The translations under genes were made by a program, and so were the position numbers. 32,000 bases of DNA, taken from positions 369 through 32,368 of the forward strand of contig NZ_JAQFIQ010000028.1 in the NCBI RefSeq assembly GCF_029504745.1, given 5' to 3'. The notes beneath the pieces were generated by a model that made no database searches, was not told where the DNA came from, and saw nothing but the letters and a program-made list of their open reading frames with translations. This DNA is from Breznakia sp. PF5-3 (GTDB lineage Bacteria > Bacillota_I > Bacilli_A > Erysipelotrichales > Erysipelotrichaceae). Shown in pieces: positions 4,330 to 30,918 of the stretch. The number at the start of each line of letters is the position of its first letter. The first letter of the stretch is position 1.

Positions 4330-4345
4330 ATAAACATCACCAACC

Positions 4346-5269: not shown

Positions 5270-5272
5270 ACA

Positions 5273-6439
5273 CTATTCAGATACAGAATCTGTTGTTGAA
5301 TTCCCTTCACCTATTTTCATAGTTCCAGAGATTTTTGCACCTTTTTCAATGTCAATATAAACAGCAGAAATATCTCCTAAAATCATAGCTTGACTTGAGA
5401 AAGAAATATCCGCTTTTGCAGTAACATTTCCTTCAATAGATCCATTGATTTCCATCGCTCTTGCTTGTACATTTCCTTTCACAAAAGTATCCTCACCAAT
5501 ATAAACGTCATTATTAACATTTATATTACCAACAACTTTTCCACTATGTAAATTCAAAGACTGTGCTGTCACATCACCTGTAACAAGTGCATTTTCATCA
5601 AATTCAACACTTTTTCCACAAGTAAGATTTCCTCGAATTTCACCTCTTACAATAAGTGGTGTTTCAACACTCACATTCCCATCAATTACTAAGCCATTTC
5701 CAAATACAGAATATTCTTCTGAACTTGATGTTGAATGCCCCATATTTGCATTATTATCATTAACATTTTCATTATTCAAATCATTGTTATAATCCATTTT
5801 TCTTTCCTCCCTGTCAGAAACTACTTTTTCTTTCTTTATTTCTTTGACCATTGTAGGCTTATACTTTCTATTTGCAAACGAAGTCACTGGGCTCACTTCT
5901 TTAACTACCTCTTTTTCTTTCGGTGTATCGTCAATTGTGTTTACAGGACTAGTAACTTTCTTAATATCTTGTTTTGGATATTTAGACTGAATTAATATTC
6001 CTTCAACATCATTATTTAGCGCATATATTTTTTCACTTTCATTTTCAATGATTTCATTTATATATGCTAACACCGATGTGACATCCCTCAAGTCATAATC
6101 ATCTAGTGCTTGTTCATTAAGAGATAAAATTATCGAATTGCACCCCATTAACATTTCCGATAATGAATTAAATCTACTTTCAATATGTTTTTGTTTTAAC
6201 AACTCTGAAATTTCTCGATCATGTTTCGATATTTCTTTCAGTTGCTCCCACTCTTTTGAAAATAATTTATCGGATAATTCTTCGTAAGCAACTTTAGAAA
6301 GTTCTAACTCCTTTATATATTTCGTCTTTAATATTTTGCGAATCAAAAATGTTACTACAAATACTGCAACAAGCAAAATAAGAAGCGTTGCTATAAATGG
6401 AACAGAAAAAATATTTACAGCTGCTACAAAATTAACCAT
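5273..6439 (-). CDS. Membrane-anchored coiled-coil protein with a C-terminal bactofilin (DUF583/CcmA-like) domain
   Basis: N-terminal TM (FSVPFIATLLILLVAVFVVTFLI) followed by a basic stretch, which places the rest in the cytoplasm. Then a helical/coiled region and an Asn/Asp-rich linker. The last ~140 aa (GNGLVIDGNVSVETPLIVRGEIRGNL...VTGDVTAQSL...GKVVGNINV...VKGNVQA...GSIEGNVTA...ILGDISA...AKISGTMKIGE) show the G-x-[IV]-x-G-[DN]-[IV] beta-helix periodicity typical of bactofilins. AAGGAG SD 5 nt before the ATG. Confidence 0.7.
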   Translation of the reverse strand: MVNFVAAVNIFSVPFIATLLILLVAVFVVTFLIRKILKTKYIKELELSKVAYEELSDKLFSKEWEQLKEISKHDREISELLKQKHIESRFNSLSEMLMGCNSIILSLNEQALDDYDLRDVTSVLAYINEIIENESEKIYALNNDVEGILIQSKYPKQDIKKVTSPVNTIDDTPKEKEVVKEVSPVTSFANRKYKPTMVKEIKKEKVVSDREERKMDYNNDLNNENVNDNNANMGHSTSSSEEYSVFGNGLVIDGNVSVETPLIVRGEIRGNLTCGKSVEFDENALVTGDVTAQSLNLHSGKVVGNINVNNDVYIGEDTFVKGNVQARAMEINGSIEGNVTAKADISFSSQAMILGDISAVYIDIEKGAKISGTMKIGEGNSTTDSVSE

Positions 6440-6473: not shown

Positions 6474-6500
6474 GTCGCTTAAAAGCCTTTTAAGGTTCAC
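6474..6500 (-). promoter_or_regulatory. ECF-type promoter P4 (GTGAAC-N17-CGAC) upstream of the bactofilin/LRR/signal-peptidase operon
   Basis: Minus strand: GTGAAC cttaaaaggcttttaag CGAC taaa, 34 nt before the ATG at 6439. Same architecture as P1-P3. The spacer is itself an 8-1-8 palindrome. Confidence 0.6.
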
Positions 6501-8089: not shown

Positions 8090-8152
8090 AATTTCTTCAT
8101 TTCCCTCGCTTTCATATGTATTTTTGGATTTATTTACATATATCAAAAGTAT

Positions 8153-8179
8153 GTCGCGCAAGTCCTAAAAAAGGTTTTC
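8153..8179 (-). promoter_or_regulatory. ECF-type promoter P3 (GAAAAC-N17-CGAC) upstream of the secreted-protein gene
   Basis: Minus strand: GAAAAC cttttttaggacttgcg CGAC atac, 63 nt before the ATG at 8089. It shares GACTT..GCGwC.TAC with P1/P2, but the -35 is weaker (AAAC instead of GAAC). It lies inside the TTG-started N-terminal extension of the track ORF. Confidence 0.45.
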
Positions 8180-17800: not shown

Positions 17801-20800
17801 TTTTTAACTAACTCATTGTTGTCTGTCATCGCTTTCGCTTCATCGACTGTCATTACAATGTTGCTAGCTACTAGTGTATACTTGTCGCCTTCTTTGATTA
17901 CATCGCCATCTACTACTTTCGCAATTGCTTTCACTTCATCTTTTGGATCTGTTGCTGCTTTTGCTTTGATAACTACTTCGTAATCTTTGACTTCTGCTTT
18001 ATATCCACCATTGTCTTTTACCATGATTTCCGATTGTGCAAGTTTTAAACCTGTTTTCGTTGACCATGCTTCTACTTCTGTCTTTTCTAAGATTTCAGCA
18101 TCTGTTCCGGTTACATCATCTTTCAAGATTACATAGTTATGTAAGTCATATGCATAATCTTTTCCTACATACAATCCTACTGCTACTACTCTTGATTTCT
18201 TAACTGTATTGTAGTCACTGTCAGTTACACTGTATTCTACTACATACATTCCTTTTTTCGATGTATCTACAGTTCCTGTTGATATTACTTTACTTGTAAT
18301 ATCTTTATCTTCTTCATCGTATGCACTAACTCCATGTTTGTAGTCATATGCATCCCCAATATTTAAACTCATGAATTCTGGATTCACTGTTAATACTGGT
18401 GCATTTCCATTAATTACAGTTACTTTAACTTTTACAGTTGTTGATGGATGTTCTTTCACTTGGTAAACAACATAATAATCTGTTGAAGTAGTATCAGTTC
18501 CAATATTCGCTTCTTTCACTTCTACTGCTACTGTACTAAAGTCTTTTACTTTCCATCCTTCTGCATTACCCCAATTAATTAAATTATCATTTGTATAATT
18601 TTCTGCTTGGCTTCTTGTAATTGTAATGTTATTTGCTCCAATTGCATAATGATCTTCTGATGTTAATTCATCTTTCTTCATTACTTTAATTGTAATTGTT
18701 GCTTTTGTATCTTTTTCTTCATCTACATAGAATGTTGCTGTATAAGTACCTTCTGCTGCTTTGAAATCTGTTGTTTCAAGTTTTACTGTTCCTGCACTCA
18801 TATCATCACGATTAATTGCTACAGCTTTTGATAACTCAATCAGTTTTGTGTTGTCAGTGATTGCTTTCGCTTGCTCAACATTCATCACTAAGTTATTAGC
18901 TCCGATTGTATATTTGCTACCTGTTTCAATCACATGCTTGTCGATTACTTTGATTTTAATCGTTGCTTTTGTTGCTTTTTCTTCATCTACATAGAATATC
19001 GCTGTATAGTCACCCTTAGCTGCTGTAAAGTTTGTTGTTTCAAGTTTTACTGTTCCTGCACTCATGTCTTTACGTTTGAATGCTTCTGCTTTTGATAACT
19101 CAATCAGTTTTGTATTGTCACTAATTGCTTTCGCTTCATCTAGTGTCATTACTAAGTTGTTTGCAACTAGTGTATATTTATCTCCGTGTTCAATGACATT
19201 TCCATCTTTTACTTTGATCTTAATAGTTACTTTCGTTGCTTTTTCTTCATCTACATAGAATGTTGCTGTGTAGTCACCTTCAGCTGCCTTGAAGTTTGTT
19301 GTTTCAAGTTTTACTGTTCCAGCACTCATATCTTTACGTTTGAATGCTTCTGCTTTTGATAACTCAATCAGTTTTGTATTGTCACTAATCGCTTTCGCTT
19401 CATCTAGTGTCATTACTAAGTTGTTTGCTCCGATTGTATACTTATCTCCGTGTTCGATTACATCTTTATCGATTACTTTGATTTTTACTGTTACTTTCGT
19501 TGCTTTTTCTTCATCCACATAGAATGTCGCTGTATAGTCTCCCTTAGCTGCTGTAAAGTTTGTTGTTTCAAGTTTTACTGTTCCTTTGCTTAGGTCTTCT
19601 AACTTCCATGCTTCTGCTTTCGCTTTTTTAACTAACTCACTGTTGTCTGTCATCGCTTTCGCTTCATCGACTGTCATTACAATGTTGCTAGCTACTAGTG
19701 TATACTTGTCGCCTTCTTTGATTACATCGCCATCTACTACTTTCGCGATTGCTTTCACTTCATCTTTTGGATCCGTTGCTGCTTTCACTTTGATAACTAC
19801 TTCGTAATCTTTGACTTCTGCTTTATATCCACCATTGTCTTTCACCATCAAGTCTGCACTTGGTATTGGCAGTCCTGTTGCGATTGACCATGCTTTTGCT
19901 TCTGTCTTTTCTAAGATTTCAGCATCTGTTCCGGTTACATCATCTTTCAAGATTACATAGTTATGTAAGTCATATGCATAATCTTTTCCTACATACAATC
20001 CTACTGCTACTACTCTTGATTTCTTAACTGTATTGTAGTCACTGTCAGTTACACTGTATTCTACTACATACATTCCTTTTTTCGATGTATCTACAGTTCC
20101 TGTTGATATTACTTTACTTGTAATATCTTTATCTTCTTCATCATATGCACTAACTCCATGTTTGTAGTCATATGCATCCCCAATATTTAAACTCATGAAT
20201 TCTGGATTCACTGTTAATACTGGTGCTTTTCCATTAATTACGTTTACATCTACCGTTGCTTTTACACTTGGATCTGCATCTACCTTGAAAGTCGCTTTAT
20301 ATAATGATGCAACTCCCTTTACAGTATGTGTATCTAAGGATACTGCTACTTCACTACGATCAGATCTCTTCCATCCTTTCGCACCTGTCAACGATTTTAA
20401 TTCTGTCGCTGCATATGTTGCATTATCTTCGATTTTCTTTGCTTCACCTAAGCGAATCTCAATATGGTTTGCTCCTATGATATATTCATCATTTACTTCT
20501 ACTACATCATATGGTAATACTTCAAAGGTTACTTCTTTTGTGATAGTTTCTTCTTTTCCTACACTAAAGACTACCTTATATTCTCCAGCTTCTGCTTTAT
20601 ATCCACCTTTTGATTTAACTTTTACAGGTGTTTCTGTACCTAAAGATGTATCGATTGCTTTCGCTTTCGCTAAATTAATAAAGTCTTGATCATCTACTAC
20701 TAATTTAGCATTATCTAACCCGATGATTACATCATTTGCACTAATCGTATATAACACTTTTTGAACAATCACTTTCGTTGCTGCTTTAAAAGTAGCATCG

Positions 20801-23403
20801 TGATAATCTTTTGTTGCTACTGGATTTTTATTTCCATTTGCATCTGTTAGGAAAATTTGAACTACATCATTTTCTTTTAATGTTGTTCCTGCAGGGAATG
20901 TATAATTCCAAGTATTATCATCATTAATTGTTCCTTCATTCCCCATTTCAACGCCGTTTAAAGTAACTGTTAATTTTACTGGCTTATCATTATTATGAAT
21001 AGCATCCAATTCCCATGTTCCTTCTAGCTTATTTCCATTTGTATATAATGTGTTTGTTACTGTTACTGGTAATGGAGGTGTTACATCACTTACCGTAACC
21101 TTGCCCACTAAAATATCTTCTGCATTCGCAACATGACGCTTTGAAGAAGTTGGATCTTCATCTCCACGCCAAGCTTCCAACACTTCATATGTTGAACCTG
21201 GTGTTAAAAATTCATTTAATGGAACTGTATACATCCCACCACGAGGTTCTTCACCATATACTGCTAATCCTGGATTATCATTATCTTTACCAATCGTTTT
21301 GGCATAATATGTATTTTGTGTTCCATCTGCTTTTACTTCTAAAATTTTCACATACACTTCATCTGTCCATGCATCCCTACCATTAAGATCTAAACCTTCT
21401 GGTACTCTTGCATGACCAAAAATACTCTTATCCGCATTTTCTGGGTTTCTCAACTCATCAATTATTGGTGTTGCATTATTTCCACTAATACGTGTATATC
21501 CTGCCATTCCTGTACTACCAAATGATGCTGCACCACTATTGAAGTCAGGATCTGATGAATTTGCTATTGTAGTAAAGTTTTGACCCGTTAAACTATAGTC
21601 AATTAAAACCCAACTTTTCCATGGGTTACCATCTACATTAGCTCCTTTTTTCCACACAGCTACATCTGAATTAATAGATTCTAGCTTTGAAGTTGATCCA
21701 TTTGTTGTTCTAAATACACTTCCTCCACCAGAACGGTTGTTTACAAAGTCATAATACAAAATATTTTCGGCATGAAAATCTAGATTTCTACCATTAATTA
21801 CTGCTGCATCAGCTCCTGCTGTATTACCTTCAACAATAAAGATTGCTCCATTTGTTGCATTAATGGTTGCATCAGAAGCATCCATATCCAAAGCACATCC
21901 ATTTTCTGCAATAATTGATATTGCACTATTTTTACCATCTACTGAAAACGATGCAGATGATGCTGATTGATATTGAATAGCTTGGTTTCTTGCATCTGAG
22001 TTTCCATCCCTTGGTGTTCCATCACCTGCATTTTGAACTAATACCTGACTACCACCAGATACCTTAAATGCATTTCCATCTCCAAAGAAACGAATCGCTG
22101 GTGCGCGACTTCCTTCTTCTTTAACTATCTTTACATTCGCTTGATTTGTTACATTAAAAGTTTGGTTACCAACATATCTAAATCGAATTGTTGCACCATA
22201 GGTATTATGACCATCTTTTGAGTATAAATTCAAATTTGATCCAGCACCATCTACGTTAAATTCTCCGCCTCCAGTAACCTGTTGAATAAGAGCTGGCATT
22301 GCTCCTTTACTGTTAACCGTTAAGCTTGAGCCTGAATTTACATAAATCCCTGATGCTTCATTTCCGGCAATCGTTGAACCACAAATAACAACAACTCCAC
22401 CATCATCTCCACTTGAAGATCCTGTTGATTCAATATTTACATGAGAATTATCTTCCACTTTAAATTGAACTCTATTTTGAGTAGTTGAACTTGAATTATT
22501 ATTAGCAAAAATTGCTTGTTCAGTACCTGTATTTATATTTAATGTTGAACCTCCTAATACCTCTAAACCTGTTACTGCTTTTGTACTTGCTACAGGATTT
22601 AGACGAATAAGTCCTGCACCAGTATTAGTACTCAAGTTTACAGTAGCTCCATCTTTAATATATATATAACGTGTATAAATCATTTCATTATAAGTACTTG
22701 TTGGCATTAGCCAATTCACTGTACCTGTAAAGTTAATAACACTGTTTCTTGCCGTTACTAACCTACTGTCACTACTTGATCCATTACTAACATTATGGAA
22801 ATTAATATTCCAGTTAGCATCATCGGTTTCTGCAGCAACAACATAATTTGCTCCACTTCTTTGAATCACAATATTTGATAACGTAAATTGTGATGGCGTT
22901 GACGCCGTTGCTAACACGAAACTATTTCTTGTAACGGTTGTAAAATCTAGAGTGAACCCATTACCATCTATTATCAAATTACGATTGACTTCAGGCAAAT
23001 CATTTGCTGATGCCGTACTACCATCTCTGGTAATATGTTTCGTAAATTTAATATGAGAAACATTGCTATCGCTCATAGCAGCTTTTAAAGTAGTCCAATC
23101 GCTTACTTCAACTGTTGCTGCTCTTGGTTTCGCGTCAAAAGTAGAAACATCCTGTGGAGGCGTTTCTTCTTGTTCTGTTTCTTCACTTGTATCTTCTTCT
23201 TGAGGCTCTTCTTCAACCTCTGAAGGCTCTTCTACCTCTTCTTCTGGACTGACATCTTCTGTTATGACATCATCTGCATCAGCAGTTAATAACACATCGC
23301 CGACTAAAGATGATACACCTAAAGACGTAAATGTCAGTAAAAAACAAAGCATAACTGTGAACAGTGTTTTCTGTTTTTTCCAGAAATTCTTCTTTTTACT
23401 CAT
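8878..23403 (-). CDS. Giant (4841 aa) repetitive cell-surface adhesin: signal peptide, acidic spacer, pectate-lyase-like beta-helix, Ig-like domains, six repeat modules, C-terminal TTGD + TM + KRKK anchor
   Basis: Single uninterrupted ORF with a strong SD (AGGAGGAGGG). N-terminal signal peptide (TLFTVMLCFLLTFTSLGVSSLVG). E/P/T-rich acidic stretch. Beta-helix region. Six DUF5011-like Ig domains (APVLTVNPEFMSLNIGDAYDYKHGVSAYDEEDKDITSKV...GMYVVEYSVTDSDYN). About thirty ~88-aa repeats (my hand count). C-terminal VTTGDDTNLNSLFAMGIISFMSVIYLVKRKKEEEE. Confidence 0.9.
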   Translation of the reverse strand: MSKKKNFWKKQKTLFTVMLCFLLTFTSLGVSSLVGDVLLTADADDVITEDVSPEEEVEEPSEVEEEPQEEDTSEETEQEETPPQDVSTFDAKPRAATVEVSDWTTLKAAMSDSNVSHIKFTKHITRDGSTASANDLPEVNRNLIIDGNGFTLDFTTVTRNSFVLATASTPSQFTLSNIVIQRSGANYVVAAETDDANWNINFHNVSNGSSSDSRLVTARNSVINFTGTVNWLMPTSTYNEMIYTRYIYIKDGATVNLSTNTGAGLIRLNPVASTKAVTGLEVLGGSTLNINTGTEQAIFANNNSSSTTQNRVQFKVEDNSHVNIESTGSSSGDDGGVVVICGSTIAGNEASGIYVNSGSSLTVNSKGAMPALIQQVTGGGEFNVDGAGSNLNLYSKDGHNTYGATIRFRYVGNQTFNVTNQANVKIVKEEGSRAPAIRFFGDGNAFKVSGGSQVLVQNAGDGTPRDGNSDARNQAIQYQSASSASFSVDGKNSAISIIAENGCALDMDASDATINATNGAIFIVEGNTAGADAAVINGRNLDFHAENILYYDFVNNRSGGGSVFRTTNGSTSKLESINSDVAVWKKGANVDGNPWKSWVLIDYSLTGQNFTTIANSSDPDFNSGAASFGSTGMAGYTRISGNNATPIIDELRNPENADKSIFGHARVPEGLDLNGRDAWTDEVYVKILEVKADGTQNTYYAKTIGKDNDNPGLAVYGEEPRGGMYTVPLNEFLTPGSTYEVLEAWRGDEDPTSSKRHVANAEDILVGKVTVSDVTPPLPVTVTNTLYTNGNKLEGTWELDAIHNNDKPVKLTVTLNGVEMGNEGTINDDNTWNYTFPAGTTLKENDVVQIFLTDANGNKNPVATKDYHDATFKAATKVIVQKVLYTISANDVIIGLDNAKLVVDDQDFINLAKAKAIDTSLGTETPVKVKSKGGYKAEAGEYKVVFSVGKEETITKEVTFEVLPYDVVEVNDEYIIGANHIEIRLGEAKKIEDNATYAATELKSLTGAKGWKRSDRSEVAVSLDTHTVKGVASLYKATFKVDADPSVKATVDVNVINGKAPVLTVNPEFMSLNIGDAYDYKHGVSAYDEEDKDITSKVISTGTVDTSKKGMYVVEYSVTDSDYNTVKKSRVVAVGLYVGKDYAYDLHNYVILKDDVTGTDAEILEKTEAKAWSIATGLPIPSADLMVKDNGGYKAEVKDYEVVIKVKAATDPKDEVKAIAKVVDGDVIKEGDKYTLVASNIVMTVDEAKAMTDNSELVKKAKAEAWKLEDLSKGTVKLETTNFTAAKGDYTATFYVDEEKATKVTVKIKVIDKDVIEHGDKYTIGANNLVMTLDEAKAISDNTKLIELSKAEAFKRKDMSAGTVKLETTNFKAAEGDYTATFYVDEEKATKVTIKIKVKDGNVIEHGDKYTLVANNLVMTLDEAKAISDNTKLIELSKAEAFKRKDMSAGTVKLETTNFTAAKGDYTAIFYVDEEKATKATIKIKVIDKHVIETGSKYTIGANNLVMNVEQAKAITDNTKLIELSKAVAINRDDMSAGTVKLETTDFKAAEGTYTATFYVDEEKDTKATITIKVMKKDELTSEDHYAIGANNITITRSQAENYTNDNLINWGNAEGWKVKDFSTVAVEVKEANIGTDTTSTDYYVVYQVKEHPSTTVKVKVTVINGNAPVLTVNPEFMSLNIGDAYDYKHGVSAYDEEDKDITSKVISTGTVDTSKKGMYVVEYSVTDSDYNTVKKSRVVAVGLYVGKDYAYDLHNYVILKDDVTGTDAEILEKTEVEAWSTKTGLKLAQSEIMVKDNGGYKAEVKDYEVVIKAKAATDPKDEVKAIAKVVDGDVIKEGDKYTLVASNIVMTVDEAKAMTDNNELVKKAKAEAWKLEDLSKGTVKLETTNFTAAKGDYTATFYVDEEKATKVTVKIKVIDKDVIEHGDKYTIGANNLVMTLDEAKAVSDNTKLIELSKAEAFKRKDMSAGTVKLEATNFTAAKGDYTATFYVDEEKATKATIKIKVIDKDVIEHGDEYTIGANNLVMTLDEAKAISDNTKLIELSKAEAFKRKDMSAGTVKLETTNFTAAKGDYTATFYVDEEKATKVTVKIKVIDKDVIEHGDKYTIGANNIEITRSVAESITNDQLIDLTKAEAFKRKDMSAGTVKVKTHNVEGTVGTYYVTFYVAEEPATEVRVAVKVVNGNAPVLTVNPEFMSLNIGDVYDYKHGVSAYDEEDKDITSKVISTGTVDTSKKGMYVVEYSVTDSDYNTVKKSRVVAVGLYVGKDYAYDLHNYVILKDDVTGTDAEILEKTEAKAWSIATGLPIPSADLMVKDNGGYKAEVKDYEVVIKVKAATDPKDEVKAIAKVVDGDVIKEGDKYTLVASNIVMTVDEAKAMTDNSELVKKAKAEAWKLEDLSKGTVKLETTNFTAAKGDYTATFYVDEEKATKVTVKIKVIDKDVIEHGDKYTIGANNLVMTLDEAKAISDNTKLIELSKAEAFKRKDMSAGTVKLETTNFKAAEGDYTATFYVDEEKATKVTIKIKVKDGNVIEHGDKYTLVANNLVMTLDEAKAISDNTKLIELSKAEAFKRKDMSAGTVKLETTNFTAAKGDYTATFYVDEEKATKATIKIKVIDKHVIETGSKYTIGANNLVMNVEQAKAITDNTKLIELSKAVAINRDDMSAGTVKLETTDFKAAEGTYTATFYVDEEKATKATITIKVMKKDELTSEEHYAIGANNITITRSQAENYTNNNLIDWGNAEGWKVKDFSTVAVEVKEANIGTDTTSTSYYAIFQVKENPSTTVKVKVTVINGNAPVLTVNPEFMSLNIGDAYDYKYGVSAYDEEDKDITSKVISTGTVDTSKKGMYVVEYSVTDSDYNIVKKSRVVAVGLYVGKDYAYDLHNYVILKDDVTGTDAEILEKTEVEAWSTKTGLKLAQSEIMVKDNGGYKAEVKDYEVVIKAKAATDPKDEVKAIAKVVDGDVIKEGDKYTLVASNIVMTVDEAKAMTDNSELVGKAKAEAWKLEDLSKGTVKLETTNFAAAKGDYTATFYVDEEKATKATIKIKVIDKDVIEHGDKYTIGANNLVMTLDEAKAISDNTKLIELSKAEAFKRKDMSAGTVKLETTNFTAAKGDYTATFYVDEEKATKATIKIKVIDKDVIEHGDKYTIGANNIEITRSVAESITNDQLIDLTKAEAFKRKDMSVGTVKVKTHNVEGTVGTYYVTFYVAEEPATEVRVSVKVVNGNAPVLTVNPEFMSLNIGDTYDYKHGVSAYDEEDKDITSKVISTGTVDTSKKGMYVVEYSVTDSDYNTVKKSRVVAVGLYVGKDYAYDLHNYVILKDDVTGTDAEILEKTEAKAWSIATGLPVPSADLMVKDNGGYKAEVKDYEVVIKVKAATDPKDEVKAIAKVVDGDVIKEGDKYTLVASNIVMTVDEAKAVSDNTKLIELSKAEAWKLEDLSKGTVKLETTNFTAAKGDYTATFYVDEEKATKVTVKIKVIDKDVIEHGDKYTIGANNLVMTLDEAKAVSDNTKLIELSKAEAFKRKDMSAGTVKLETTNFKAAEGDYTATFYVDEEKATKVTIKIKVKDGNVIEHGDEYTIVANNLVMTLDEAKAVSDNTKLIELSKAEAFKRKDMSVGTVKLETTNFKAANGDYTATFYVDEEKATKAAIKIKVIDKDVIEHGDKYTIGANNLVMTVDEAKAITDNTKLIELSKAVAINRDDMSAGTVKLETTNFTAAKGDYTATFYVDEEKDTKATIKIKVIDKDVIEHGDKYTIGANNIEITRSVAESITNDQLIDLTKAEAFKRKDMSAGTVKVKTHNVEGTVGTYYVTFYVAEEPATEVRVAVKVVNGNAPVLTVNPEFMSLNIGDAYDYKHGVSAYDEEDKDITSKVISTGTVDTSKKGMYVVEYSVTDSDYNTVKKSRVVAVGLYVGKDYAYDLHNYVILKDDVTGTDAEILEKTEAKAWSIATGLPVPSADLMVKDNGGYKAEVKDYEVVIKVKAATDPKDEVKAIAKVVDGDVIKEGDKYTLVASNIVMTVDEAKAMTDNSELVKKAKAEAWKLEDLSKGTVKLETTNFTAAKGDYTATFYVDEEKATKVTVKIKVIDKDVIEHGDKYTIGANNLVMTLDEAKAISDNTKLIELSKAEAFKRKDMSAGTVKLETTDFTAAKGDYTATFYVDEEKATKVTIKIKVKDGNVIEHGDKYTLVANNLVMTLDEAKAISDNTKLIELSKAEAFKRKDMSVGTVKLETTNFTAAKGNYTATFYVDEEKDTKATIKIKVIDKDVIEHGDKYTIGANNLVMTLDEAKAITDNTKLIELSKAVAINRDDMSAGTVKLETTNFTAAKGDYTATFYVDEEKATKATIKIKVIDKDVIEHGDEYTIGANNLVMTLDEAKAISDNTKLIELSKAEAFKRKDMSAGTVKLETTNFKAAKGDYTATFYVDEEKATKATIKIKVIDKDVIEHGDEYTIGANNLVMTLEEAEAIKNNNELIKLSKAEAFKRKDMSAGTVKLETTNFKAAEGDYTATFYVDEEKDTKATIKIKVKDGNVIEHGDEYTIVANNLVMTLAEAEAISDNTKLIELSKAEAFKRKDMSAGTVKLETTDFKAAEGDYTATFYVDEEKDTKATIKIKVKAKDVIVKGDKYYIGANHITINSHTAETITNDQLIALTEAEAWLKKDLSSAKVEVESHNVIGEAGVYQVTFHVVKEPTTKVTVNVNVTKTALDITAKDFTISHAEASNMNEAKVLELSEADVIINSKTRALAPTKESIAVHQEHLRVVKGSTILGGVYDVKLSVEHEGVEYATVIKVTVTPGRKPSVTPPTVSKPSTAVTTGDDTNLNSLFAMGIISFMSVIYLVKRKKEEEE
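13705..16818 (-). repeat. Super-repeat copy 2 (3114 nt: modules 3+4; one 264-nt unit shorter than copy 1)
   Basis: 16816-13702 = 3114 = 3378-264. Module 4 has three 88-aa units where module 2 has four. Confidence 0.8.
16819..20196 (-). repeat. Super-repeat copy 1 (3378 nt: modules 1+2)
   Basis: Offset of exactly 3378 nt to copy 2. Antisense ORF translations at 18761/15383, 19064/15686, 19289/15911 and 19586/16208 are letter-for-letter identical. DNA at 19579 onward matches 16201 onward by eye. Confidence 0.85.
21465..23121 (-). other. N-terminal pectate-lyase-like (right-handed beta-helix) adhesive domain of the giant protein
   Basis: VSDWTTLKAAMSDSNVSHIKFTKHI...NRNLIIDGNGFTLDF opening followed by many short G/N/S/T-rich rungs (VNLSTNTGAG, LNINTGTEQA, VNIESTGSSSG, LTVNSKGA, FNVDGAGSN...). 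The pattern matches adhesive beta-helix domains of Firmicute surface proteins, but the family is assigned by eye only. Confidence 0.55.
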
Positions 23404-23484: not shown

Positions 23485-23511
23485 GACGCATAAGTCAAAA
23501 TTCAGGTTCAT
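23485..23511 (-). promoter_or_regulatory. ECF-type promoter P2 (ATGAAC-N17-CGTC) upstream of the giant adhesin gene
   Basis: Minus strand: ATGAAC ctgaattttgacttatg CGTC ttac. It starts 25 nt after the stop of the LRR gene and lies ~81 nt before the adhesin ATG. Near-identical to P1 across TGACTTAwGCGTCwTAC. Confidence 0.65.
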
Positions 23512-23535: not shown

Positions 23536-26211
23536 TTATTGTAAACCTTCAAGATTGCGTTTTTTCCAAAATTTGCATAATAAACAGCCACTTAAACTAA
23601 GTAAAAATAAATTGAATTCTATCCTTTCACCATGTCTATCTCCTGCGGAAACAACTGCCTTGCTAAGGGTTTCATTCTCACTTTGCATTGACTTGCTTTT
23701 TCCACCAGCGATACTCATAGCATTCTTCGCATCAACAACCACCTCTACAGAAAGTTCACCTTCTATAGAATTCCCTGAATAGTCTTGTGCGATCGCTGAA
23801 AAAGTTAACTTAAAGACACCTCCTTCTATGTTGACTTCATTTATTTTTTTTAGTTGTTTTTCATTTACTTTTATAATATTGTCATTACTTTTTTCGTCCA
23901 GTTTATGATATATCTTAATTTCCGCTTCCCCAATAGCATCTTCTGCTTGTAAAGCTTTCGCTTCATCATACGTCAGATGTATATTTCTACCTGAAATTAT
24001 CATTTCCTCATTTGGTCCAATTGGATATGTATTATTACCATAAACGGTTACTGTAACTTTTTTACTTACTTCATAGTTGTTTGCTTTTATTGTATATAGC
24101 AGTTCAAACACACCACCTTGTGATGATACATTTTTAATCTGCTGCCATTGTTCTTCATGTATGCCAATACTACTACCAACATCAGCAAATCCACTTATTT
24201 GTCCATCGGTTGTTCGTTTCATCAAAAATGAGCGAACGTTAGATTTACTTATTGCTTGACTCTTTGTTAAGCTTTGCACTTCATCATATGTAAATTGCAG
24301 ATTATCTGCACCAATTACTAGATTTGATAAACTATCCATAACACTATTTCTATTTGTTATTAATACTTGAATTGTTTTTGTTCCTTTTTTACCATCCTTA
24401 TTTATTGCTTCATAATTAACATCATAGATTCCAATAGCATTAAATTCTGCATTCCCATTCTTAAGTGCATAATGAATATCATCATAATCAATTGCTTGTT
24501 TTATTGGTTCTGCACCAATAGTATCCTGTGCCTTTAACCAATATGCATCCACACGATTTCGAATACTATAATCTATATTCGTATTTCCCAGTTCATATTT
24601 TTGTGGTTTCGCAAGAATTACAGGCTGACCATGAACTTTTATTTTTCTTTGATATGTTGCACTATAGCCTTCTGTATCTTCGATTGAATAGGTCACTTGA
24701 TAAGTCCCTGCTTTTTTATTGTTAATATTCGTAGATGCAACCTCAACATCACTTGTAATATCATTTCCTAAGATATCGTATGCTTTCACATCTTTCATCA
24801 AATCATATGTATCGCCTACGTATAATTCTATGTCATTTGCTGTAAAGCTTGGTTCTTCCCACCAAATAATCGGTTGGGTTACTTCTCCAACATACCATGT
24901 ATCATCACCAAAATAATTTAATGAATATTGATAAACATCATCGGCAGTTGGATCTAGTGTTAATTCAATTGATTCATATGTTTGTCCATCTATTGTCATT
25001 GGAATTGTATTCCCATAACGATCTTTCACAATTGATGTAACTATAACCTTTCCAGTTGCTTTATCACCAATTAATGAAGTCTCATTTGTATAGCGTTGAC
25101 CCTGATTATTGTTTGGATCTTGATATGGATCTGCATCAGAATTATGTCTTACATAAACAACAGCAGAAACATTCGCTAACGCTGATAAATCCGTAACATG
25201 ATTGTTATTAAGCCAAATTGCTGCATTTCCATTTGTAGTAATTGTTGCTAATGGTGATATATCCGTAATATTGTTATTAGATAACTGCAATATATTAATC
25301 TTTGTAAGATTTGATAAAGGCGTGATATCGGTAATATTGTTATGATTTAATATAAGTCGCTTAGCATCTGTATAATGTTCAAAAATACTAATATCTGTAA
25401 TATTGTTATTTTGAAAATGAAATACTACTTCTGGAATACAATCTGTTATTGGCAAAGTATTTAAATCATCATCATCAATGCCATTATTATTAAACATAAT
25501 TTGCTCATCCAAATTTGGAAACCTAGAAGCTGTTAAAATTGAAAAATCATGAATCTCATTGGTTCCTGTGTTCCAATTATTAAATTCCATCTGAGATAAA
25601 TATGGATAAACAGTATTGCGCATTGGCTCTAAACTTTTAATATTGTGATCATTCAAATAAATATAACGTAGTGAAGTCATATACTCAATCCCTTGAAGAT
25701 CACGAATACGTTTAGTAGGATTATTTTCAATATAATAAATACTATCTACCTGTCCCAAATCCTCGATTGTGAAATTGCTATCTAAACCCTTTTCAAACAC
25801 TAGGTAATTATAAAAGTTAATATCTGGAACAAGATCAATCCCTGTAGCAGCACGAGTAGAAATTTGCTTTTGGATTTCTGTAATTTGAATTTCTTGTGTT
25901 GCCTTAGTTACCTTATTATCCATTTCATAAGTAATTGTTAAAGTATATACACCATTTTCTTCAATGATAATAGTAGGATCATTTATATCTAAAATAGTAT
26001 CTTCAAATACAAGTTCACGAATTCCATATGTTTGTATTGCTTCTTTCGAGATGTTAATCTTAGCTCTTTGATTATGCAACTCATAGAAAGTAGTATATGT
26101 TAACGTAAAATTCTCATCTGCATCAGCTTCATTTAAAAGTACAAAACAACTAATTAGTAAATATGAAAACACGATACATATAAATTTTACAAAATTTTGT
26201 TTATACCTCAT
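23536..26211 (-). CDS. Internalin-like LRR surface protein with Ig-like (DUF5011-type) domains, two copies of the adhesin-type ~88-aa repeat fold, and a C-terminal SAGD + TM + basic tail
   Basis: Start taken at ATG 26211 (MRYKQNFVKFICIVFSYLLISCFVLLNEADA; signal peptide, possible LISC lipobox). 22-residue LRRs (NNITDITPLSNLTKINILQLSNNNITDISPLATI...NNNHVTDLSALANV). DUF5011-like FTANDIELYVGDTYDLMKDVKAYDILGNDITSDV...GTYQVTYSIEDTEGY. C-terminal LFLLSLSGCLLCKFWKKRN. Confidence 0.75.
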   Translation of the reverse strand: MRYKQNFVKFICIVFSYLLISCFVLLNEADADENFTLTYTTFYELHNQRAKINISKEAIQTYGIRELVFEDTILDINDPTIIIEENGVYTLTITYEMDNKVTKATQEIQITEIQKQISTRAATGIDLVPDINFYNYLVFEKGLDSNFTIEDLGQVDSIYYIENNPTKRIRDLQGIEYMTSLRYIYLNDHNIKSLEPMRNTVYPYLSQMEFNNWNTGTNEIHDFSILTASRFPNLDEQIMFNNNGIDDDDLNTLPITDCIPEVVFHFQNNNITDISIFEHYTDAKRLILNHNNITDITPLSNLTKINILQLSNNNITDISPLATITTNGNAAIWLNNNHVTDLSALANVSAVVYVRHNSDADPYQDPNNNQGQRYTNETSLIGDKATGKVIVTSIVKDRYGNTIPMTIDGQTYESIELTLDPTADDVYQYSLNYFGDDTWYVGEVTQPIIWWEEPSFTANDIELYVGDTYDLMKDVKAYDILGNDITSDVEVASTNINNKKAGTYQVTYSIEDTEGYSATYQRKIKVHGQPVILAKPQKYELGNTNIDYSIRNRVDAYWLKAQDTIGAEPIKQAIDYDDIHYALKNGNAEFNAIGIYDVNYEAINKDGKKGTKTIQVLITNRNSVMDSLSNLVIGADNLQFTYDEVQSLTKSQAISKSNVRSFLMKRTTDGQISGFADVGSSIGIHEEQWQQIKNVSSQGGVFELLYTIKANNYEVSKKVTVTVYGNNTYPIGPNEEMIISGRNIHLTYDEAKALQAEDAIGEAEIKIYHKLDEKSNDNIIKVNEKQLKKINEVNIEGGVFKLTFSAIAQDYSGNSIEGELSVEVVVDAKNAMSIAGGKSKSMQSENETLSKAVVSAGDRHGERIEFNLFLLSLSGCLLCKFWKKRNLEGLQ

Positions 26212-27391
26212 TACGCACAACCTTCTTTCTCTTTTGATAGTATAGATAAATAAGTACAATCAATAATGATATAATAAATGGAATTGCACTAATCAACAGT
26301 TTGAATGGAAAAGATTTTTCGGCATTAATTTTAAGTTTAGTAAAAAAATCAATATAGAATCTCTCAGGCGAAGAAACTATTTTACTATCATATTCTGTGT
26401 ATATACTTCCTTCAATGATTTTATCCACACGATAGGATAATCCTGATTTTGATATTTCATCCTTTTGGTACAATGCATACACAACTGTATCCTCTGTGAT
26501 ATCATGCAAATCTTCCGACCACCCTAAAAATGTATTATTATTTTTCTTCGGTCCTGCAATGGCTTCACCATCATCTCCATAATTTACAAAAGTTTGATAA
26601 TAAAGTTCATTATCTACATAATATGAAACACGATATTGCTTAATCACAAATGTAGCATATAAATTCATTGATTTTTTTATCTTTTCGCCATTATAAAAAA
26701 AACCTTTTCCATCTAACTGTGTATTAAAGCCAAGAAAACGATATCCTTTTTTCGAAACAAGTGGAGTATCTACTACTTGATTATTTTTCACCTTTATTTG
26801 TTTCAACAATATCGTTCCATCATAGAAATTAACTGTATGAGTTGTATTATTGAATCCAAACTTTCCTCGAAACGCATGTTCATAGGTTTCGCTTTTATCA
26901 CCCATGGTAATTTCACTAGATAATATTTTCATATCTACACTGATTTTATCTCGTGAAGACCCGATTGTCATAACTTCTAAATCATAAGTTGTTTTCGTAC
27001 TATTTAAAGCAATCGCTTTTCCATTATTGAGATAAGAAGTATATTCATCCTGTGAAGCATTACGACCATTAATTTTTAATACTCCCTTATAATAATCTTT
27101 AAATTTGATACCTTCTTTTTCTATAAATAAAATTTTAGAGTCAACCACTCCTGAATGATTCACTACATTCATTGTAATTTTAACAGTTGATCCATAAGGA
27201 ACATCTGTAGTACTCTCTAGGCTATATGCCTGTCCTGAAGCAGATATTACTTTAGCACTTGAAGATAGTGACAAATCAAAGTAAACCTCTTTTGCTTCCA
27301 CGCTAAAAATACCAGTGAGTAAACTAAACACCACTGATATCGTTAACACTGCAAATGTTACTACCTTTCTTATTGTCCCTGTCTTATTCAT
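26201..27391 (-). CDS. Membrane protein with two Listeria-Bacteroides (Flg_new / InlB B-repeat type) repeats and a C-terminal TM anchor
   Basis: Start taken at ATG 27391, 7 nt after the sigma gene stop; the track start is a TTG at 27409. Signal peptide MNKTGTIRKVVTFAVLTISVVFSLLTGIFSVEA|K. Repeats HTVNFYDG...KKGYRFLGFNT...MNLYATF and YRVSYYVDN...NNTFLGWSED...TVVYALY. C-terminal LISAIPFIISLLIVLIYLYYQKRKK. Its last 11 nt overlap the next gene start. Confidence 0.7.
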   Translation of the reverse strand: MNKTGTIRKVVTFAVLTISVVFSLLTGIFSVEAKEVYFDLSLSSSAKVISASGQAYSLESTTDVPYGSTVKITMNVVNHSGVVDSKILFIEKEGIKFKDYYKGVLKINGRNASQDEYTSYLNNGKAIALNSTKTTYDLEVMTIGSSRDKISVDMKILSSEITMGDKSETYEHAFRGKFGFNNTTHTVNFYDGTILLKQIKVKNNQVVDTPLVSKKGYRFLGFNTQLDGKGFFYNGEKIKKSMNLYATFVIKQYRVSYYVDNELYYQTFVNYGDDGEAIAGPKKNNNTFLGWSEDLHDITEDTVVYALYQKDEISKSGLSYRVDKIIEGSIYTEYDSKIVSSPERFYIDFFTKLKINAEKSFPFKLLISAIPFIISLLIVLIYLYYQKRKKVVRNEV

Positions 27392-27398: not shown

Positions 27399-28718
27399 CT
27401 AACTTTCAATATTCACTATATAAGAAATCATATTTCCTGATTTATCATAAATAGTTACATAAACCTCTCCTTCAAATTCTTTTTTTATTTCGCCATTTTT
27501 TGGAATTGCTATTTTCTCTTCTTTATACAAAATATAAGATGAAGCATAATTTAGCCCTAAACCTTCATCTTTTAATTTGACTGATAAAGTTCCATCTTCA
27601 TAACCAATATCAACCATCTCTGGTGCTTTTTTATCAATATTGTCAATCGATATTTTTTGAATATCCTCAGCAACTTTGATTGTATAATCACCATTTCTTT
27701 CAACTTGGAATGATAAAACATCATTCTGGATATCAAAAGCAATCGCTTCCTTTCCTTGTTTTACATTAACTTTAGATTTCTCAACATTCTTATTTAACTT
27801 TGCTTTTACTTCAATTTTCTTATTTGTTGGTTCTTGATAATAACTTATATCTAGAATTTGTGGTGTCTCTGTATTCAAGTTTTGATATACCACATAACTT
27901 CCTGCAGCTCCTAATCCAAGGATTCCTACAAGTGCCGCTTTTGCTATATCAGATATAAAATTACCTCCTATCGCCGCTGCTGGAACAACCACAGATGCGG
28001 CATTGGATCCAGAATGAATAATTTTGTTATAGATTTCAGTCGCTCCACTCGTAGACATCTTATTTTTTTGAATAATGTCAGCAAACAATCGATATGCGAA
28101 TGGGGTAAACGTAAACCCGAAATACTTAGCTGGAGAATATCCTCGTTCTGCTAATCCAGGTTTAATAACTTTCCTAATTCTTCTAAGTCTTGTTTTTACT
28201 GTACCTTCTGGTATCTTTAGTATATAGGCAATCTCATTAATTGATAGCCCTTCATAATACTTCAACATCCCGACTTCAAAAAACTTATCAGAAAGTTGAT
28301 TAAGTTCTGATTTAATCGCATCATAAACTTCTTTACTTTCTACTTCGTGTACTTGATCATTATCAACACGAATAATTTCTTCTAAATTTGTCTCTTCGTT
28401 TAAATCAACTTGTTTTGATCGTTTACGGTAAAGCGATTGTGAACGATTAAACGCAATCGTGAAAAGCCAAGAATGAAAAGCTTTATTAGACTTTAAAACT
28501 TGGATATTTTCAAATACATTCACAAATGTTTCCTGTACAATTTCTTCTGCATCTGCTGCATTCTTCATCAACTTCAAACCAAAGTAATAAATCGAGTCCC
28601 GATAAAAATCATATATCACATTAAATGCTTCAATATCACCATTACGAAAACGTTCGATATATTCAACATCGATTTCTCTTCGATTTCCTGTTTTTTTATA
28701 CTCTTTCTTGGATTTCAT
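27399..28718 (-). CDS. ECF (group 4) sigma-70 factor fused to a linker, one TM helix and a ~160-aa extracytoplasmic domain (single-chain sigma/anti-sigma-like protein)
   Basis: Region 2: DAEEIVQETFVNVFENIQVLKSNKAFHSWLFTIAFNRSQSLYRK. Region 4.2 HTH: LSINEIAYILKIPEGTVKTRLRRIRKVIK (aa ~20-187). Hydrophobic helix IAKAALVGILGLGAAGSYVVY (aa ~257-278, nt 27885-27950). Beta-rich C-terminal part with an Ig-like DKKAPEMV...DEGLGLNY segment. No separate anti-sigma gene lies adjacent. Confidence 0.85.
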   Translation of the reverse strand: MKSKKEYKKTGNRREIDVEYIERFRNGDIEAFNVIYDFYRDSIYYFGLKLMKNAADAEEIVQETFVNVFENIQVLKSNKAFHSWLFTIAFNRSQSLYRKRSKQVDLNEETNLEEIIRVDNDQVHEVESKEVYDAIKSELNQLSDKFFEVGMLKYYEGLSINEIAYILKIPEGTVKTRLRRIRKVIKPGLAERGYSPAKYFGFTFTPFAYRLFADIIQKNKMSTSGATEIYNKIIHSGSNAASVVVPAAAIGGNFISDIAKAALVGILGLGAAGSYVVYQNLNTETPQILDISYYQEPTNKKIEVKAKLNKNVEKSKVNVKQGKEAIAFDIQNDVLSFQVERNGDYTIKVAEDIQKISIDNIDKKAPEMVDIGYEDGTLSVKLKDEGLGLNYASSYILYKEEKIAIPKNGEIKKEFEGEVYVTIYDKSGNMISYIVNIES

Positions 28719-28747: not shown

Positions 28748-28774
28748 GACGCTTAAGTCAGCGAAAAAGTTCAC
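28748..28774 (-). promoter_or_regulatory. ECF-type promoter P1 (GTGAAC-N17-CGTC) upstream of the sigma operon (putative autoregulation)
   Basis: Minus strand: GTGAAC tttttcgctgacttaag CGTC atac, 29 nt before the sigma ATG and immediately downstream of the grcA-like terminator. Confidence 0.65.
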
Positions 28775-29103: not shown

Positions 29104-29184
29104 AAGTATACCAACCTTTCTATTGCTTATACCTATGTATAATATAACGCATCTATGTTGTAATGATAAACTATTTGCCCAGAA

Positions 29185-30039: not shown

Positions 30040-30051
30040 AAGTTGATCCTC

Positions 30052-30900: not shown

Positions 30901-30918
30901 ATATTTACGCTCCTAATT

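Follow-up and report, generated by a model that had tools for sequence, protein, structure and literature searches.

A one-chain, membrane-spanning ECF sigma factor family from Breznakia and its putative adhesin regulon

Introduction

No transmembrane transcription switch could be simpler than an ECF sigma factor fused to a membrane-spanning sensor. Of these fusions, only the Gram-negative IutY has been dissected. IutY of Pseudomonas putida belongs to group ECF243, and its sigma domain is freed by sequential cleavage by Prc and RseP (PMC5411451; PMC8999054). The sequence-only reading of the locus described here had held that membrane-spanning fusions are mechanistically uncharacterized, and the dissection of IutY release (PMC5411451) shows that this was not so.

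A single IutY chain combines an ECF sigma at its N terminus, one membrane helix, and an extracytoplasmic domain at its C terminus, and there is no separate anti-sigma factor. The Breznakia fusion has the same IutY-type layout. A TonB-dependent outer-membrane transducer passes the signal to IutY, which is FecI/FecR-like and has a periplasmic FecR-type anti-sigma domain. The Breznakia fusion, unlike IutY, belongs to the Bacillota and has a SigW-like sigma, two Ig-like domains without a Pfam match, and a Flg_new membrane protein as a conserved neighbor. An outer-membrane TonB-dependent transducer would not be expected in its host because the host is a member of the Bacillota. No TonB-dependent receptor family was matched among the cluster proteins scanned.

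ECF52, ECF48, and ECF53 are actinobacterial sigma/anti-sigma fusions for which proteolytic activation is predicted, and SCO4117 (ECF52) of Streptomyces coelicolor has been studied genetically (PMC8999054). In these groups, as in the Breznakia fusion, the ECF sigma continues into a C-terminal extension that crosses the membrane and has an extracytoplasmic domain. Their extensions contain a zinc-finger anti-sigma domain, at least one helix, a proline-rich region, and a carbohydrate-binding domain. The Breznakia family differs from them in phylum and in its unrelated linker. It also lacks the zinc-binding motif HxxxCxxC, which is absent from residues 170 to 300 of all 82 family members.

SigW-RsiW and SigV-RsiV of Bacillus subtilis are two-protein systems. 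Their anti-sigma factors are single-pass, N-in proteins that are removed by site-1 cleavage and then by RasP. The site-1 cut in RsiV is made by signal peptidase. The promoter type (AAC at -35 and CGT at -10) is common to these systems and the Breznakia fusion. The Breznakia sigma is fused, unlike SigW and SigV, and scores below the equivalog cutoffs of both. The fusion contains neither the zinc-finger domain of RsiW nor an RsiV-type lysozyme-binding domain.

In ECF41 and ECF42, regulation also occurs in cis, through a domain fused after sigma4, and there is no anti-sigma gene. There, the fused domain is a cytoplasmic SnoaL_2 or TPR domain, and no membrane helix is present. The Breznakia fusion has no Pfam match to SnoaL_2 or TPR and has a hydrophobic helix instead.

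A more distant parallel is SigI-RsgI of Clostridium thermocellum, in which RseP is reported to cut the anti-sigma RsgI inside its membrane helix (PMC12203970, PMC10328401). One genome carries several parallel sensor/sigma modules, each with its own promoter specificity, that serve genes for extracellular protein assemblies, and this resembles the Breznakia case. SigI is a non-ECF sigma. Unlike the sensor part of the Breznakia fusion, RsgI is a separate protein. It has its own anti-sigma domain at the N terminus, followed by carbohydrate-binding modules and a periplasmic domain that is autoproteolytic.

We found no report of a Firmicutes/Bacillota example of a membrane-spanning sigma/anti-sigma fusion in the literature searched. 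Among the groups named in the main text of Casas-Pastor et al. (2021), none is a Firmicutes group whose extension has a single helix. The principle is known from other phyla, and the Breznakia family is an undescribed, Bacillota version of it. Current understanding is not overturned by this family because the principle is already established.

Results and Discussion

The fusion protein

The window is a 32-kb stretch of DNA from Breznakia sp. PF5-3. It contains a sigma-linker-TM-Ig2 fusion gene at 27399..28718 on the minus strand (MDF9825117.1 / WP_277490615.1). The gene is a single unbroken ORF of 439 aa. It has an ATG start and a Shine-Dalgarno sequence (GGGGG) about 10 nt upstream. From the N to the C terminus, the protein comprises a complete ECF sigma, a helical linker of ~55 aa, a hydrophobic helix (residues 258 to 278), and two tandem Ig-like beta-sandwich domains. 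An ECF sigma, a membrane helix, and an outward Ig-like part in one chain had been proposed in the sequence-only reading; the domain matches, the conserved hydrophobic segment, and the structural model bear this out. That reading had also seen no separate anti-sigma gene, and indeed no canonical anti-sigma gene lies nearby.

Three near-identical fusion proteins were found in different Breznakia assemblies. Full-length homologues were found down to 24% identity. The same architecture was present in ~80 cluster representatives (50% identity clusters) with lengths of 412 to 465 aa. Because of these three sets of proteins, the fusion is not a sequencing artifact, and judging from them it is real and conserved. 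A frameshift that splits the ORF into a sigma gene and an anti-sigma gene had been allowed for earlier. Such a frameshift, or a misassembly that joined two ordinary genes, can be ruled out with near certainty: the ORF is uninterrupted, the three independent assemblies agree, and the ~80 diverged representatives have the same length and architecture.

The sequence of the protein shows all the hallmarks of a functional ECF sigma. Sigma70_ECF matched residues 20 to 185. Both sigma regions that had been assigned by eye were matched by Pfam profiles, Sigma70_r2 at residues 38 to 102 (E value, 1.6e-11) and Sigma70_r4_2 at residues 134 to 183 (E value, 1.1e-08). NCBIfam TIGR02937 (sigma70-ECF) scored 85.8 bits against a cutoff of 42.9. 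Regions 2 and 4.2 are present with ~30 residues between them, and regions 1.1 and 3 are absent, as is characteristic of ECF (group 4) sigmas. Region 2 (residues ~20 to 102; 28413..28661, minus strand) was modeled with a pLDDT of 85 to 97. It contains the conserved core-binding motif DAEEIVQETF. Region 4.2 (residues ~128 to 190; 28149..28337, minus strand) was modeled with a pLDDT of 81 to 97. SigW is among the closest sigma domains by sequence (114.5 bits) and fold (5wur, 33% identity). The protein is not a SigW equivalog, with 114.5 bits against 209 and 104.8 bits against 243.1 (NCBIfam PRK09641 / TIGR02948).

The whole modeled sigma domain was superposed on solved ECF structures. Among anti-sigma-bound ECFs, it gave a target-normalized TM-score of 0.72 with EcfG-NepR (rmsd, 3.9 A), 0.71 with CnrH-CnrY, and 0.67 with SigW-RsiW. 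It superposed poorly on RNA-polymerase-bound ECFs (TM-score, 0.30 to 0.43; rmsd, 20 to 28 A). The modeled conformation is compact, like that of anti-sigma-bound ECFs, and polymerase incompatible, and this shape may reflect an AlphaFold preference, since free ECFs have mostly been solved as complexes with an anti-sigma.

The cytoplasmic linker after sigma4 (residues 191 to 243; 27990..28148, minus strand) contains a conserved motif and is a candidate in-cis inhibitory element. Its modeled helices span residues 196 to 199, 204 to 218, and 223 to 241. An AlphaFold model from 18 sequences had left the linker unresolved (pLDDT, <50). It was replaced by a model from an 82-sequence alignment, in which the linker has a pLDDT of 71 to 93. 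This model, with its confident linker helices and its compact, anti-sigma-bound-like sigma shape, is the one positive line of evidence for a built-in anti-sigma, which would act together with proteolytic release.

The linker has no sequence support as a known anti-sigma or zinc-finger domain (RsiW, RseA, RslA, RskA, and similar). Searched with the linker profile up to an E value of 10, the PDB sequences yielded no anti-sigma chain. TALE-repeat matches in the PDB sequences were discounted as summed weak repeats. Among 32 linkers, no two matched the same Pfam family.

The linker might instead be a mere spacer. The sigma would then still be tethered and proteolytically released, and it would be inhibited by membrane sequestration alone or by a separate anti-sigma encoded elsewhere in the genome. 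A spacer would suit a segment that resembles no known anti-sigma domain, was modeled without confidence from the shallow alignment, and is the least conserved folded part of the protein (mean pairwise identity, 19% versus 36 to 37% for the sigma domains). However, the linker helices became confident with the deeper alignment, and the motif L..xG..P.KY.S....P runs across the whole family. A visibly related post-sigma4 motif also occurs in more distant fused ECFs that bear other ectodomains. We consider a mere spacer unlikely and prefer an inhibitory linker.

The predicted transmembrane helix at residues 258 to 278 (IAKAALVGILGLGAAGSYVVY; 27885..27947, minus strand) is rich in Gly and Ala. It was modeled as a helix at residues 258 to 281 with low pLDDT. 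Its hydrophobicity is marginal, with a Kyte-Doolittle average of 1.66 in the best 19-residue window. A Gly/Ala/Ser-rich stretch (residues 244 to 257) directly precedes it. An equivalent hydrophobic segment was present in 82 of 82 aligned family members, with a median score of 1.87 and scores of up to 3.3. Across the family, the flank on the N side is mostly net positive and that on the C side is net negative or neutral. An N-in, C-out topology would fit the hydrophobicity, the flank charges, and an ectodomain that is homologous to repeats of surface proteins.

The putative extracytoplasmic part (residues 285 to 439; 27402..27866, minus strand) contains two tandem Ig-like beta-sandwich domains modeled with a pLDDT of >90. 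They meet at a conserved NIDKxxP motif. In a Foldseek search, the ectodomain model resembled tandem Ig/FnIII modules. No Pfam family, FecR included, covers residues beyond 190 of the fusion protein. A C-terminal profile search of the protein database retrieved four proteins only. The same Ig-like module is repeated 5 to 31 times in giant surface proteins of other organisms. The C-terminal part probably lies outside the cell because its module recurs in such proteins and the charges around the helix fit. The ectodomain was also considered as a copy of the cluster's own surface-protein domains, which would allow homotypic sensing. This was rejected, as no similarity was found by BLAST or HMM.

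If the hydrophobic segment did not span the membrane, the Ig-like domains would form a cytoplasmic regulatory extension, as in ECF41/ECF42. The segment of this protein is marginally hydrophobic and rich in Gly and Ala, and several close relatives score 1.3 to 1.5, as might be expected of such an extension. Yet the segment lies at the same place in all aligned members, many of them score 2.5 to 3.3, and the flanks follow the positive-inside pattern. The Ig-like module is a repeat unit in giant secreted surface proteins, and stand-alone versions consist of a short N terminus, a strong membrane helix, and the same ectodomain. A cytoplasmic extension is barely credible on this evidence, and we treat the protein as membrane spanning.

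Gene cluster and putative promoters

The fusion gene ends with a TAG stop at 27401-27399. After a 7-nt gap, the next ATG (27391-27389) starts a 396-aa gene (26201..27391, minus strand). The stop of that gene (26203-26201) overlaps the following ATG (26211-26209) by 11 nt. The gap and the overlap are as the sequence-only reading had given them. The 396-aa product is a translationally coupled type I membrane protein and a candidate extracellular partner. It contains a cleavable-looking signal peptide, a Flg_new/InlB B-repeat region, a C-terminal anchor, and a cytoplasmic tail of ~12 aa.

The 396-aa protein was ruled out as a classical anti-sigma by its signal peptide, extracellular body, C-terminal anchor, and 12-aa tail; it cannot carry a cytoplasmic anti-sigma domain because the tail is so short. 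It may act as an extracellular partner. The co-transcribed surface proteins had earlier been put forward as partners, and for the 396-aa protein this proposal has gained support. Its homologue, a membrane protein of ~390 to 480 aa with Flg_new repeats, lies directly downstream of the sigma gene in 6 of the 8 distinct loci that were examined (L001, L003, L005, L007, L008, and L009). The order of sigma fusion, Flg_new-type protein, and large surface proteins is kept across homologues of 30 to 59% identity.

The gene that overlaps the 396-aa gene encodes an 891-aa internalin-like surface protein (23536..26211, minus strand) with LRR_4 and Bact_surface_Ig-like domains. It is followed by the gene for a 4,841-aa giant adhesin (8878..23403, minus strand). 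The adhesin contains a signal peptide, a Pectate_lyase_5 adhesive domain, Bact_surface_Ig-like domains, 88-aa tandem repeats, and a C-terminal anchor. A 470-aa ORF (6749-8161, minus strand) has its likely start at the MMKRK methionines. A further unit is a bactofilin / LRR_5 / signal-peptidase operon (3760..6439, minus strand). It encodes a membrane-anchored bactofilin (388 aa), a BspA-type LRR_5 protein (307 aa), and an S26 signal peptidase I (189 aa). In L003 and L007, the sigma gene comes immediately after this trio. Besides the 32-kb window, only L003, of which L004 is a duplicate, and L007 have the trio together with the sigma gene. A signal peptide or a membrane anchor is present in each protein that the cluster encodes.

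A putative ECF-type promoter of the sigma operon (TGAAC-N17-CGTC, then ATAC) lies at 28748..28773 on the minus strand, ~30 nt upstream of the ATG. Its AAC-type -35 and CGT-type -10 elements, upstream of the sigma's own gene, make it a candidate autoregulatory promoter. A second exact copy (TGAAC-N17-CGTC, then TTAC) lies in the intergenic region before the giant adhesin gene (23485..23510, minus strand). The window contains these two exact copies versus 0.10 expected, both on the coding strand and both in relevant intergenic regions. The same motif at the same spacing was found upstream of the homologue in L001.

Two relaxed sites precede two further units. The one before the 470-aa ORF (8153..8177, minus strand) is a relaxed ECF-like site, AAAC-N17-CGAC, and is a weaker match. 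The one before the bactofilin / LRR_5 / signal-peptidase operon (6474..6499, minus strand) is ECF-like, TGAACC-N16-CGAC, then TAAA. L003 has an equivalent ECF-like site upstream of the same trio. The relaxed motif gave five matches in the window, all on the minus strand, versus 1.3 expected, and four of the five are upstream of genes. Sigma-70-type promoters and terminators between 23300 and 29200 were not above chance, and none was found in the two key intergenic regions.

Most likely, the sigma fusion autoregulates and drives the adhesin/surface-protein cluster of ~25 kb, because TGAAC-N17-CGTC precedes its own operon and the adhesin gene and relaxed copies precede two further units. The 4,841-aa adhesin gene is the probable main target. 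The bactofilin / LRR_5 / signal-peptidase operon is a putative member of the regulon.

Mode of activation

The best explanation of these features is a one-component transmembrane ECF sigma that is inhibited by its linker and released by proteolysis. The evidence is all computational, and we place the probability of this reading at roughly 60%. The SigW-like sigma2-sigma4 domain would lie in the cytoplasm. The helical linker and the single Gly/Ala-rich helix would tether it to the two extracellular Ig-like domains. In the resting state, the sigma would be inactive and kept at the membrane, and the linker helices would probably sit against sigma2 and sigma4 in the manner of an anti-sigma domain. 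The Ig-like domains would sense an extracellular event, probably jointly with the co-encoded 396-aa membrane protein. Sensing would lead to trimming of the ectodomain by a site-1 protease, for which the S26 signal peptidase of the cluster is one candidate. A site-2 protease of the RasP/RseP type would then cut the Gly/Ala-rich helix and free the sigma domain to bind RNA polymerase. No site-2 protease gene was found in the 32-kb window.

The sigma might also act while tethered to the membrane and never be released, as ToxR-, CadC-, or TcpP-type regulators do. The ectodomain would then tune its activity by a change in conformation or oligomeric state. With transcription, translation, and membrane insertion coupled, the locus would stay at the membrane, where a sigma on a ~70-residue linker could reach it. 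Such an arrangement would agree with the position of all candidate target promoters within ~25 kb of the sigma gene, with the secreted or anchored nature of every cluster product, and with the long, variable, flexible Gly/Ala/Ser stretch of the linker. There is also no obvious site-1 cleavage site, because the juxtamembrane segment between the membrane helix and the first Ig strand is only ~9 residues long. Against it, IutY, the only characterized sigma/anti-sigma fusion, needs proteolytic release, and the modeled sigma is in a polymerase-incompatible shape. Site-2 protease substrates typically have the helix-destabilizing residues Gly, Ala, and Ser in their membrane helix, and so does this protein. 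To our knowledge, no holoenzyme with a membrane-bound sigma has been described. Activity without release is very unlikely in our judgment, and proteolytic release remains the preferred reading.

A wider proposal is speculative and, as we see it, quite unlikely. The fusion, its 396-aa partner, and the cluster signal peptidase might form a Gram-positive "cell-surface signalling" circuit. It would report the assembly state or mechanical engagement of the giant adhesin to the adhesin's own promoters. In an extreme version, a tethered sigma would act on a locus that co-translational secretion keeps at the membrane. One genome would carry several such modules, each with its own promoter code. If this were true, there would be one insulated channel per adhesin.

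Related loci

The Breznakia family is a compact, self-contained Gram-positive example of a fused sigma with readable putative cognate promoters and a conserved partner protein. Its predicted output is the giant adhesins of insect-gut Erysipelotrichaceae. It could be used to study adhesin expression coupled to cell-surface events and as a source of parts for synthetic signaling.

The genome of Breznakia sp. PF5-3 contains two further related fusion loci besides 27399..28718. Locus-specific promoter variants were present in two to three coding-strand copies each in L005, L008, L009, and L010, versus 0.08 to 0.2 expected, with the -10 variants picked post hoc from the sequences. The variant differs from one related locus to another but is the same at the sites of any one locus, and this includes the two additional PF5-3 copies. 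The -10 variants among the PF5-3 copies and their relatives are CGTC, CAAC, and TGTC. Several copies with distinct promoter variants in one genome suggest naturally insulated sigma/promoter pairs. A profile search of genome contigs for the fusion family retrieved a single locus, from Erysipelotrichaceae bacterium MTC7.

Fused ECF sigma factor of Breznakia sp. PF5-3

The window belongs to Breznakia sp. PF5-3 (Erysipelotrichaceae, Bacillota). The fusion gene (27399-28718, minus strand) contains 439 codons without interruption. It begins with an ATG codon, with a GGGGG Shine-Dalgarno sequence 5' of it. The product is identical to MDF9825117.1/WP_277490615.1, annotated in the database only as "RNA polymerase sigma factor." Residues 20 to 190 are a complete ECF sigma factor, with Pfam matches to Sigma70_r2 (residues 38 to 102), Sigma70_r4_2 (134 to 183) and Sigma70_ECF (20 to 185), which bears out the regions 2 and 4.2 recognized in the sequence-only reading. 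It scores over the cut-off of NCBIfam sigma70-ECF. The sigma domain is SigW-like, yet the best NCBIfam equivalog models (SigW and others) score it far under their cut-offs. No Pfam or NCBIfam family covers any part of the chain beyond residue 190. An artefactual ORF has next to no probability, because homologues spanning the full length reach down to 24% identity.

Membrane helix and Ig-like ectodomain

The helix IAKAALVGILGLGAAGSYVVY (residues 258 to 278) reaches a Kyte-Doolittle mean of 1.66 in its best 19-residue window, a borderline value that comes from its Gly/Ala content. A hydrophobic segment is present at this position in 82 of 82 sequences of the family alignment, with a median hydrophobicity of 1.87 and many members at 2.5 to 3.3. 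In the same alignment, the N-side flank is net positive as a rule and includes an almost invariant Lys, and the C-side flank has a negative or neutral net charge. The conserved segment and the flank charges support a predicted single-pass topology, N-in and C-out, as well as the membrane helix proposed earlier. A cytoplasmic C-terminal extension that does not span the membrane is very improbable.

Residues 285 to 439 are modeled as two beta-sandwich domains (AlphaFold pLDDT >90). Foldseek matches them to tandem modules of the Ig/FnIII type, among them sDscam Ig1-2, MET IPT, intimin and CbhA FnIII. The beta-rich, Ig-like C-terminal part is thus supported, and the fused architecture described from the sequence (uninterrupted ORF, membrane helix, Ig-like part) was accurate. 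A profile of the linker, helix and ectodomain was run against 1.84 billion representative proteins and gave 1011 matches at E values of 0.001 or lower. Of the 150 best matches, about 80 are proteins of 412 to 465 aa that align from about residue 180 onward and therefore have the same fused architecture. Among the matches listed, many giant surface proteins of 1 to 4.5 thousand residues contain the Ig-like module 5 to 31 times, which argues that the module is extracellular. It has no detectable relatedness to the surface proteins of the window's own cluster.

Linker

Residues 191 to 243 contain the conserved motif L..xG..P.KY.S....P, and the rest of the linker shows weak conservation: pairs of sequences share on average 19% identity in the linker, 36 to 37% in sigma2 and sigma4 and 27 to 29% in the Ig domains. 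The HxxxCxxC motif is present in 0 of 82 family members. A linker profile found neither anti-sigma chains among the PDB sequences nor an anti-sigma family in Pfam. With 18 sequences, AlphaFold gave the linker a pLDDT <50; with 82 sequences, it placed helices at 196 to 199, 204 to 218 and 223 to 241 at pLDDT 71 to 93. A linker that is only a spacer, with sequestration alone inhibiting the sigma factor, is an unlikely account. The sigma2/sigma4 placement in the 82-sequence model resembles anti-sigma-bound ECFs (target-normalized TM-score 0.72 and rmsd 3.9 A for EcfG-NepR, 0.71 for CnrH-CnrY, 0.67 for SigW-RsiW) and does not match polymerase-bound ECFs (0.30 to 0.43, rmsd 20 to 28 A), in a comparison where AlphaFold is possibly biased to compact sigma conformations. 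This placement and the modeled helices fit a linker that may act as an in-cis inhibitory element of two helices, like CnrY or NepR.

Related proteins and precedents

A second subfamily (P0117, P0131 and P0175) has the same ectodomain and a more divergent sigma and linker. A wider set of Bacillota ECFs (P0019 to P0032; L013 6001-7671) contains proteins of 348 to 665 aa with one membrane helix and unrelated ectodomains. Their post-sigma4 motif, YEKxNxKLHS, is visibly related to that of the fusion. Because these distant ECFs also carry a fused helix, single-helix fusions are widespread in Bacillota. The P0032 gene is flanked by CBM26 alpha-amylase genes and precedes genes for LRR_5/Big_2 surface proteins. 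P0115, P0116 and P0118 (198 to 214 aa) are stand-alone proteins without a sigma domain, in which a short N-terminus is followed by a strong membrane helix and the two Ig-like domains of the fusion; they could represent split or ancestral versions.

In its way of working, the fusion is likened to IutY of Pseudomonas putida (PMC5411451) and to the predicted ECF52, ECF48 and ECF53 fusions (PMC8999054). It lacks the FecR domain and TonB-dependent transducer of IutY and the zinc finger of the three ECF groups. Given these precedents, the earlier claim of novelty was too strong. The main text of the ECF classification (PMC7826278), the reviews consulted and the literature searched mention no Firmicutes example of a membrane-spanning ECF fusion. 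The protein fits best into the known class "ECF sigma with a fused transmembrane regulatory extension," as a new variant from Bacillota.

Promoters

The intergenic sequence upstream of the sigma gene contains GTGAAC-N17-CGTCATAC (28748-28773, minus strand), which has the shape of a textbook ECF promoter. With the canonical motif used for the window test, exact TGAAC-N17-CGTC occurs 2 times in 32 kb against 0.10 expected. The second copy (23485-23510, minus strand) is intergenic, upstream of the 4841-aa ORF. The relaxed form [GA]AAC-N17-CG[TA]C has 5 matches against 1.3 expected, all on the coding (minus) strand. Four of them are found one each upstream of the sigma gene, the giant ORF, a 470-aa ORF and the bactofilin operon (ECF-like promoter at 6474-6499, minus strand). 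The fifth, TGAAC-N17-CGAC (25356-25380, minus strand), falls within the 891-aa protein's coding sequence and may be an internal promoter or a chance match.

Locus-specific variants recur on the coding strand at related loci. L001 has one TGAACC-N16-CGTCTAAC upstream of the sigma gene. L005 has two copies of TGAACC-N16-CAACTAAT, and L010 has two of AAAC-N17-CGTC, in both loci ahead of the sigma gene and of the giant gene. TGAAC-N17-TGTC occurs three times in L008 (upstream of a small gene preceding the sigma gene, and upstream of and just after a 724-aa surface-protein gene) and twice in L009 (before the sigma gene and before a small gene that lies about 1.4 kb farther upstream). Expectation is 0.08 to 0.2 per locus, and the per-locus P values are optimistic, since the -10 variants were chosen after the sequences were inspected.

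L005 and L010 are from the same genome as the window. PF5-3 therefore encodes at least three homologous fusions (window 27399-28718; L005 10001-11302; L010 5180-6457), each with a giant surface-protein gene beside it and its own promoter variant: CGTC (window), CAAC, or AAAC at -35. L005 also contains GGAACC-N16-CGTC at 3007 and 9045 (plus strand), upstream of two non-sigma genes near the fusion, one for a 510-aa protein without Pfam matches, within a run of large-protein genes, and the other a DUF1307 gene. The -10 of these sites is the window sigma's variant, not the local one, so cross-regulation among the copies is possible.

Gene cluster and proposed mechanism

The 396-aa protein gene (26201-27391, minus strand) follows the sigma gene after a 7-nt gap, and the 891-aa LRR-plus-Ig protein gene follows with an 11-nt overlap, as first described. 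The 396-aa protein has a signal peptide, Flg_new/InlB B-repeats and a C-terminal anchor. Homologues (30 to 46% identity) lie directly 3' of the sigma gene in six loci (L001, L003, L005, L007, L008 and L009). L010 and L011 have no such homologue; there the sigma gene is followed by a gene for a giant surface protein. Onward from the 891-aa gene are the giant adhesin (8878-23403, minus strand), a lipoprotein gene, a 470-aa secreted protein and the bactofilin operon. The adhesin combines a signal peptide and an acidic stretch with a Pectate_lyase_5 "adhesive" domain, six or more Bact_surface_Ig-like domains and tandem-repeat arrays (unit 264 bp or 88 aa, 81 to 87% identity). The operon (3760-6439, minus strand) has three genes: one for a bactofilin that carries a membrane helix at its N-terminus, one for a BspA-type LRR_5 protein and one for a dedicated S26 signal peptidase I. 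The same three genes stand immediately upstream of the sigma gene in L003 and L007, with a promoter of the same ECF-like kind.

We favor, with a probability of roughly 0.6, an autoregulating one-component membrane ECF sigma. It would drive its own gene and the adhesin cluster. At rest it would be kept inactive by the membrane tether and docking of the linker. The Ig domains would sense an extracellular event, with or without the 396-aa partner, and regulated proteolysis would then free the sigma factor. The analysis establishes the architecture with its conservation, the promoter motifs and the gene order around the fusion, and from these the inhibition, the signal and the proteases are inferred. 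Neither a canonical anti-sigma gene nor a site-2 protease gene lies in the window. A sigma factor active while tethered, without release, is less likely than a linker serving as a spacer. The mechanism proposed in the sequence-only reading, a built-in anti-sigma with proteolytic release, is reasonable and unproven.

Other features of the window

The giant adhesin ends in TTGDD, a hydrophobic stretch and KRKKEEEE, which looks like a sorting signal other than LPXTG. The 891-aa protein ends alike (SAGD, a hydrophobic stretch and KKRN). A hairpin seen by eye, GCAGGTATAAA...TTTATACCTGC with a T-run (about 8260-8300, minus strand), follows the 151-aa lipoprotein gene and is likely the intrinsic terminator closing the giant-adhesin transcription unit. 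The region 80-3600 contains a P-type ATPase gene with a C-terminal HMA domain (plus strand) and genes for a Fur-family regulator and then rubrerythrin (minus strand), which have no connection with the fusion. The region 28870-31773 (minus strand) encodes a 77-aa GrcA-like protein that is a stand-alone glycyl-radical domain, and a terminator-like hairpin comes after its gene. Upstream of that gene are three DegV-like genes in tandem (282 to 284 aa), recognized by eye.
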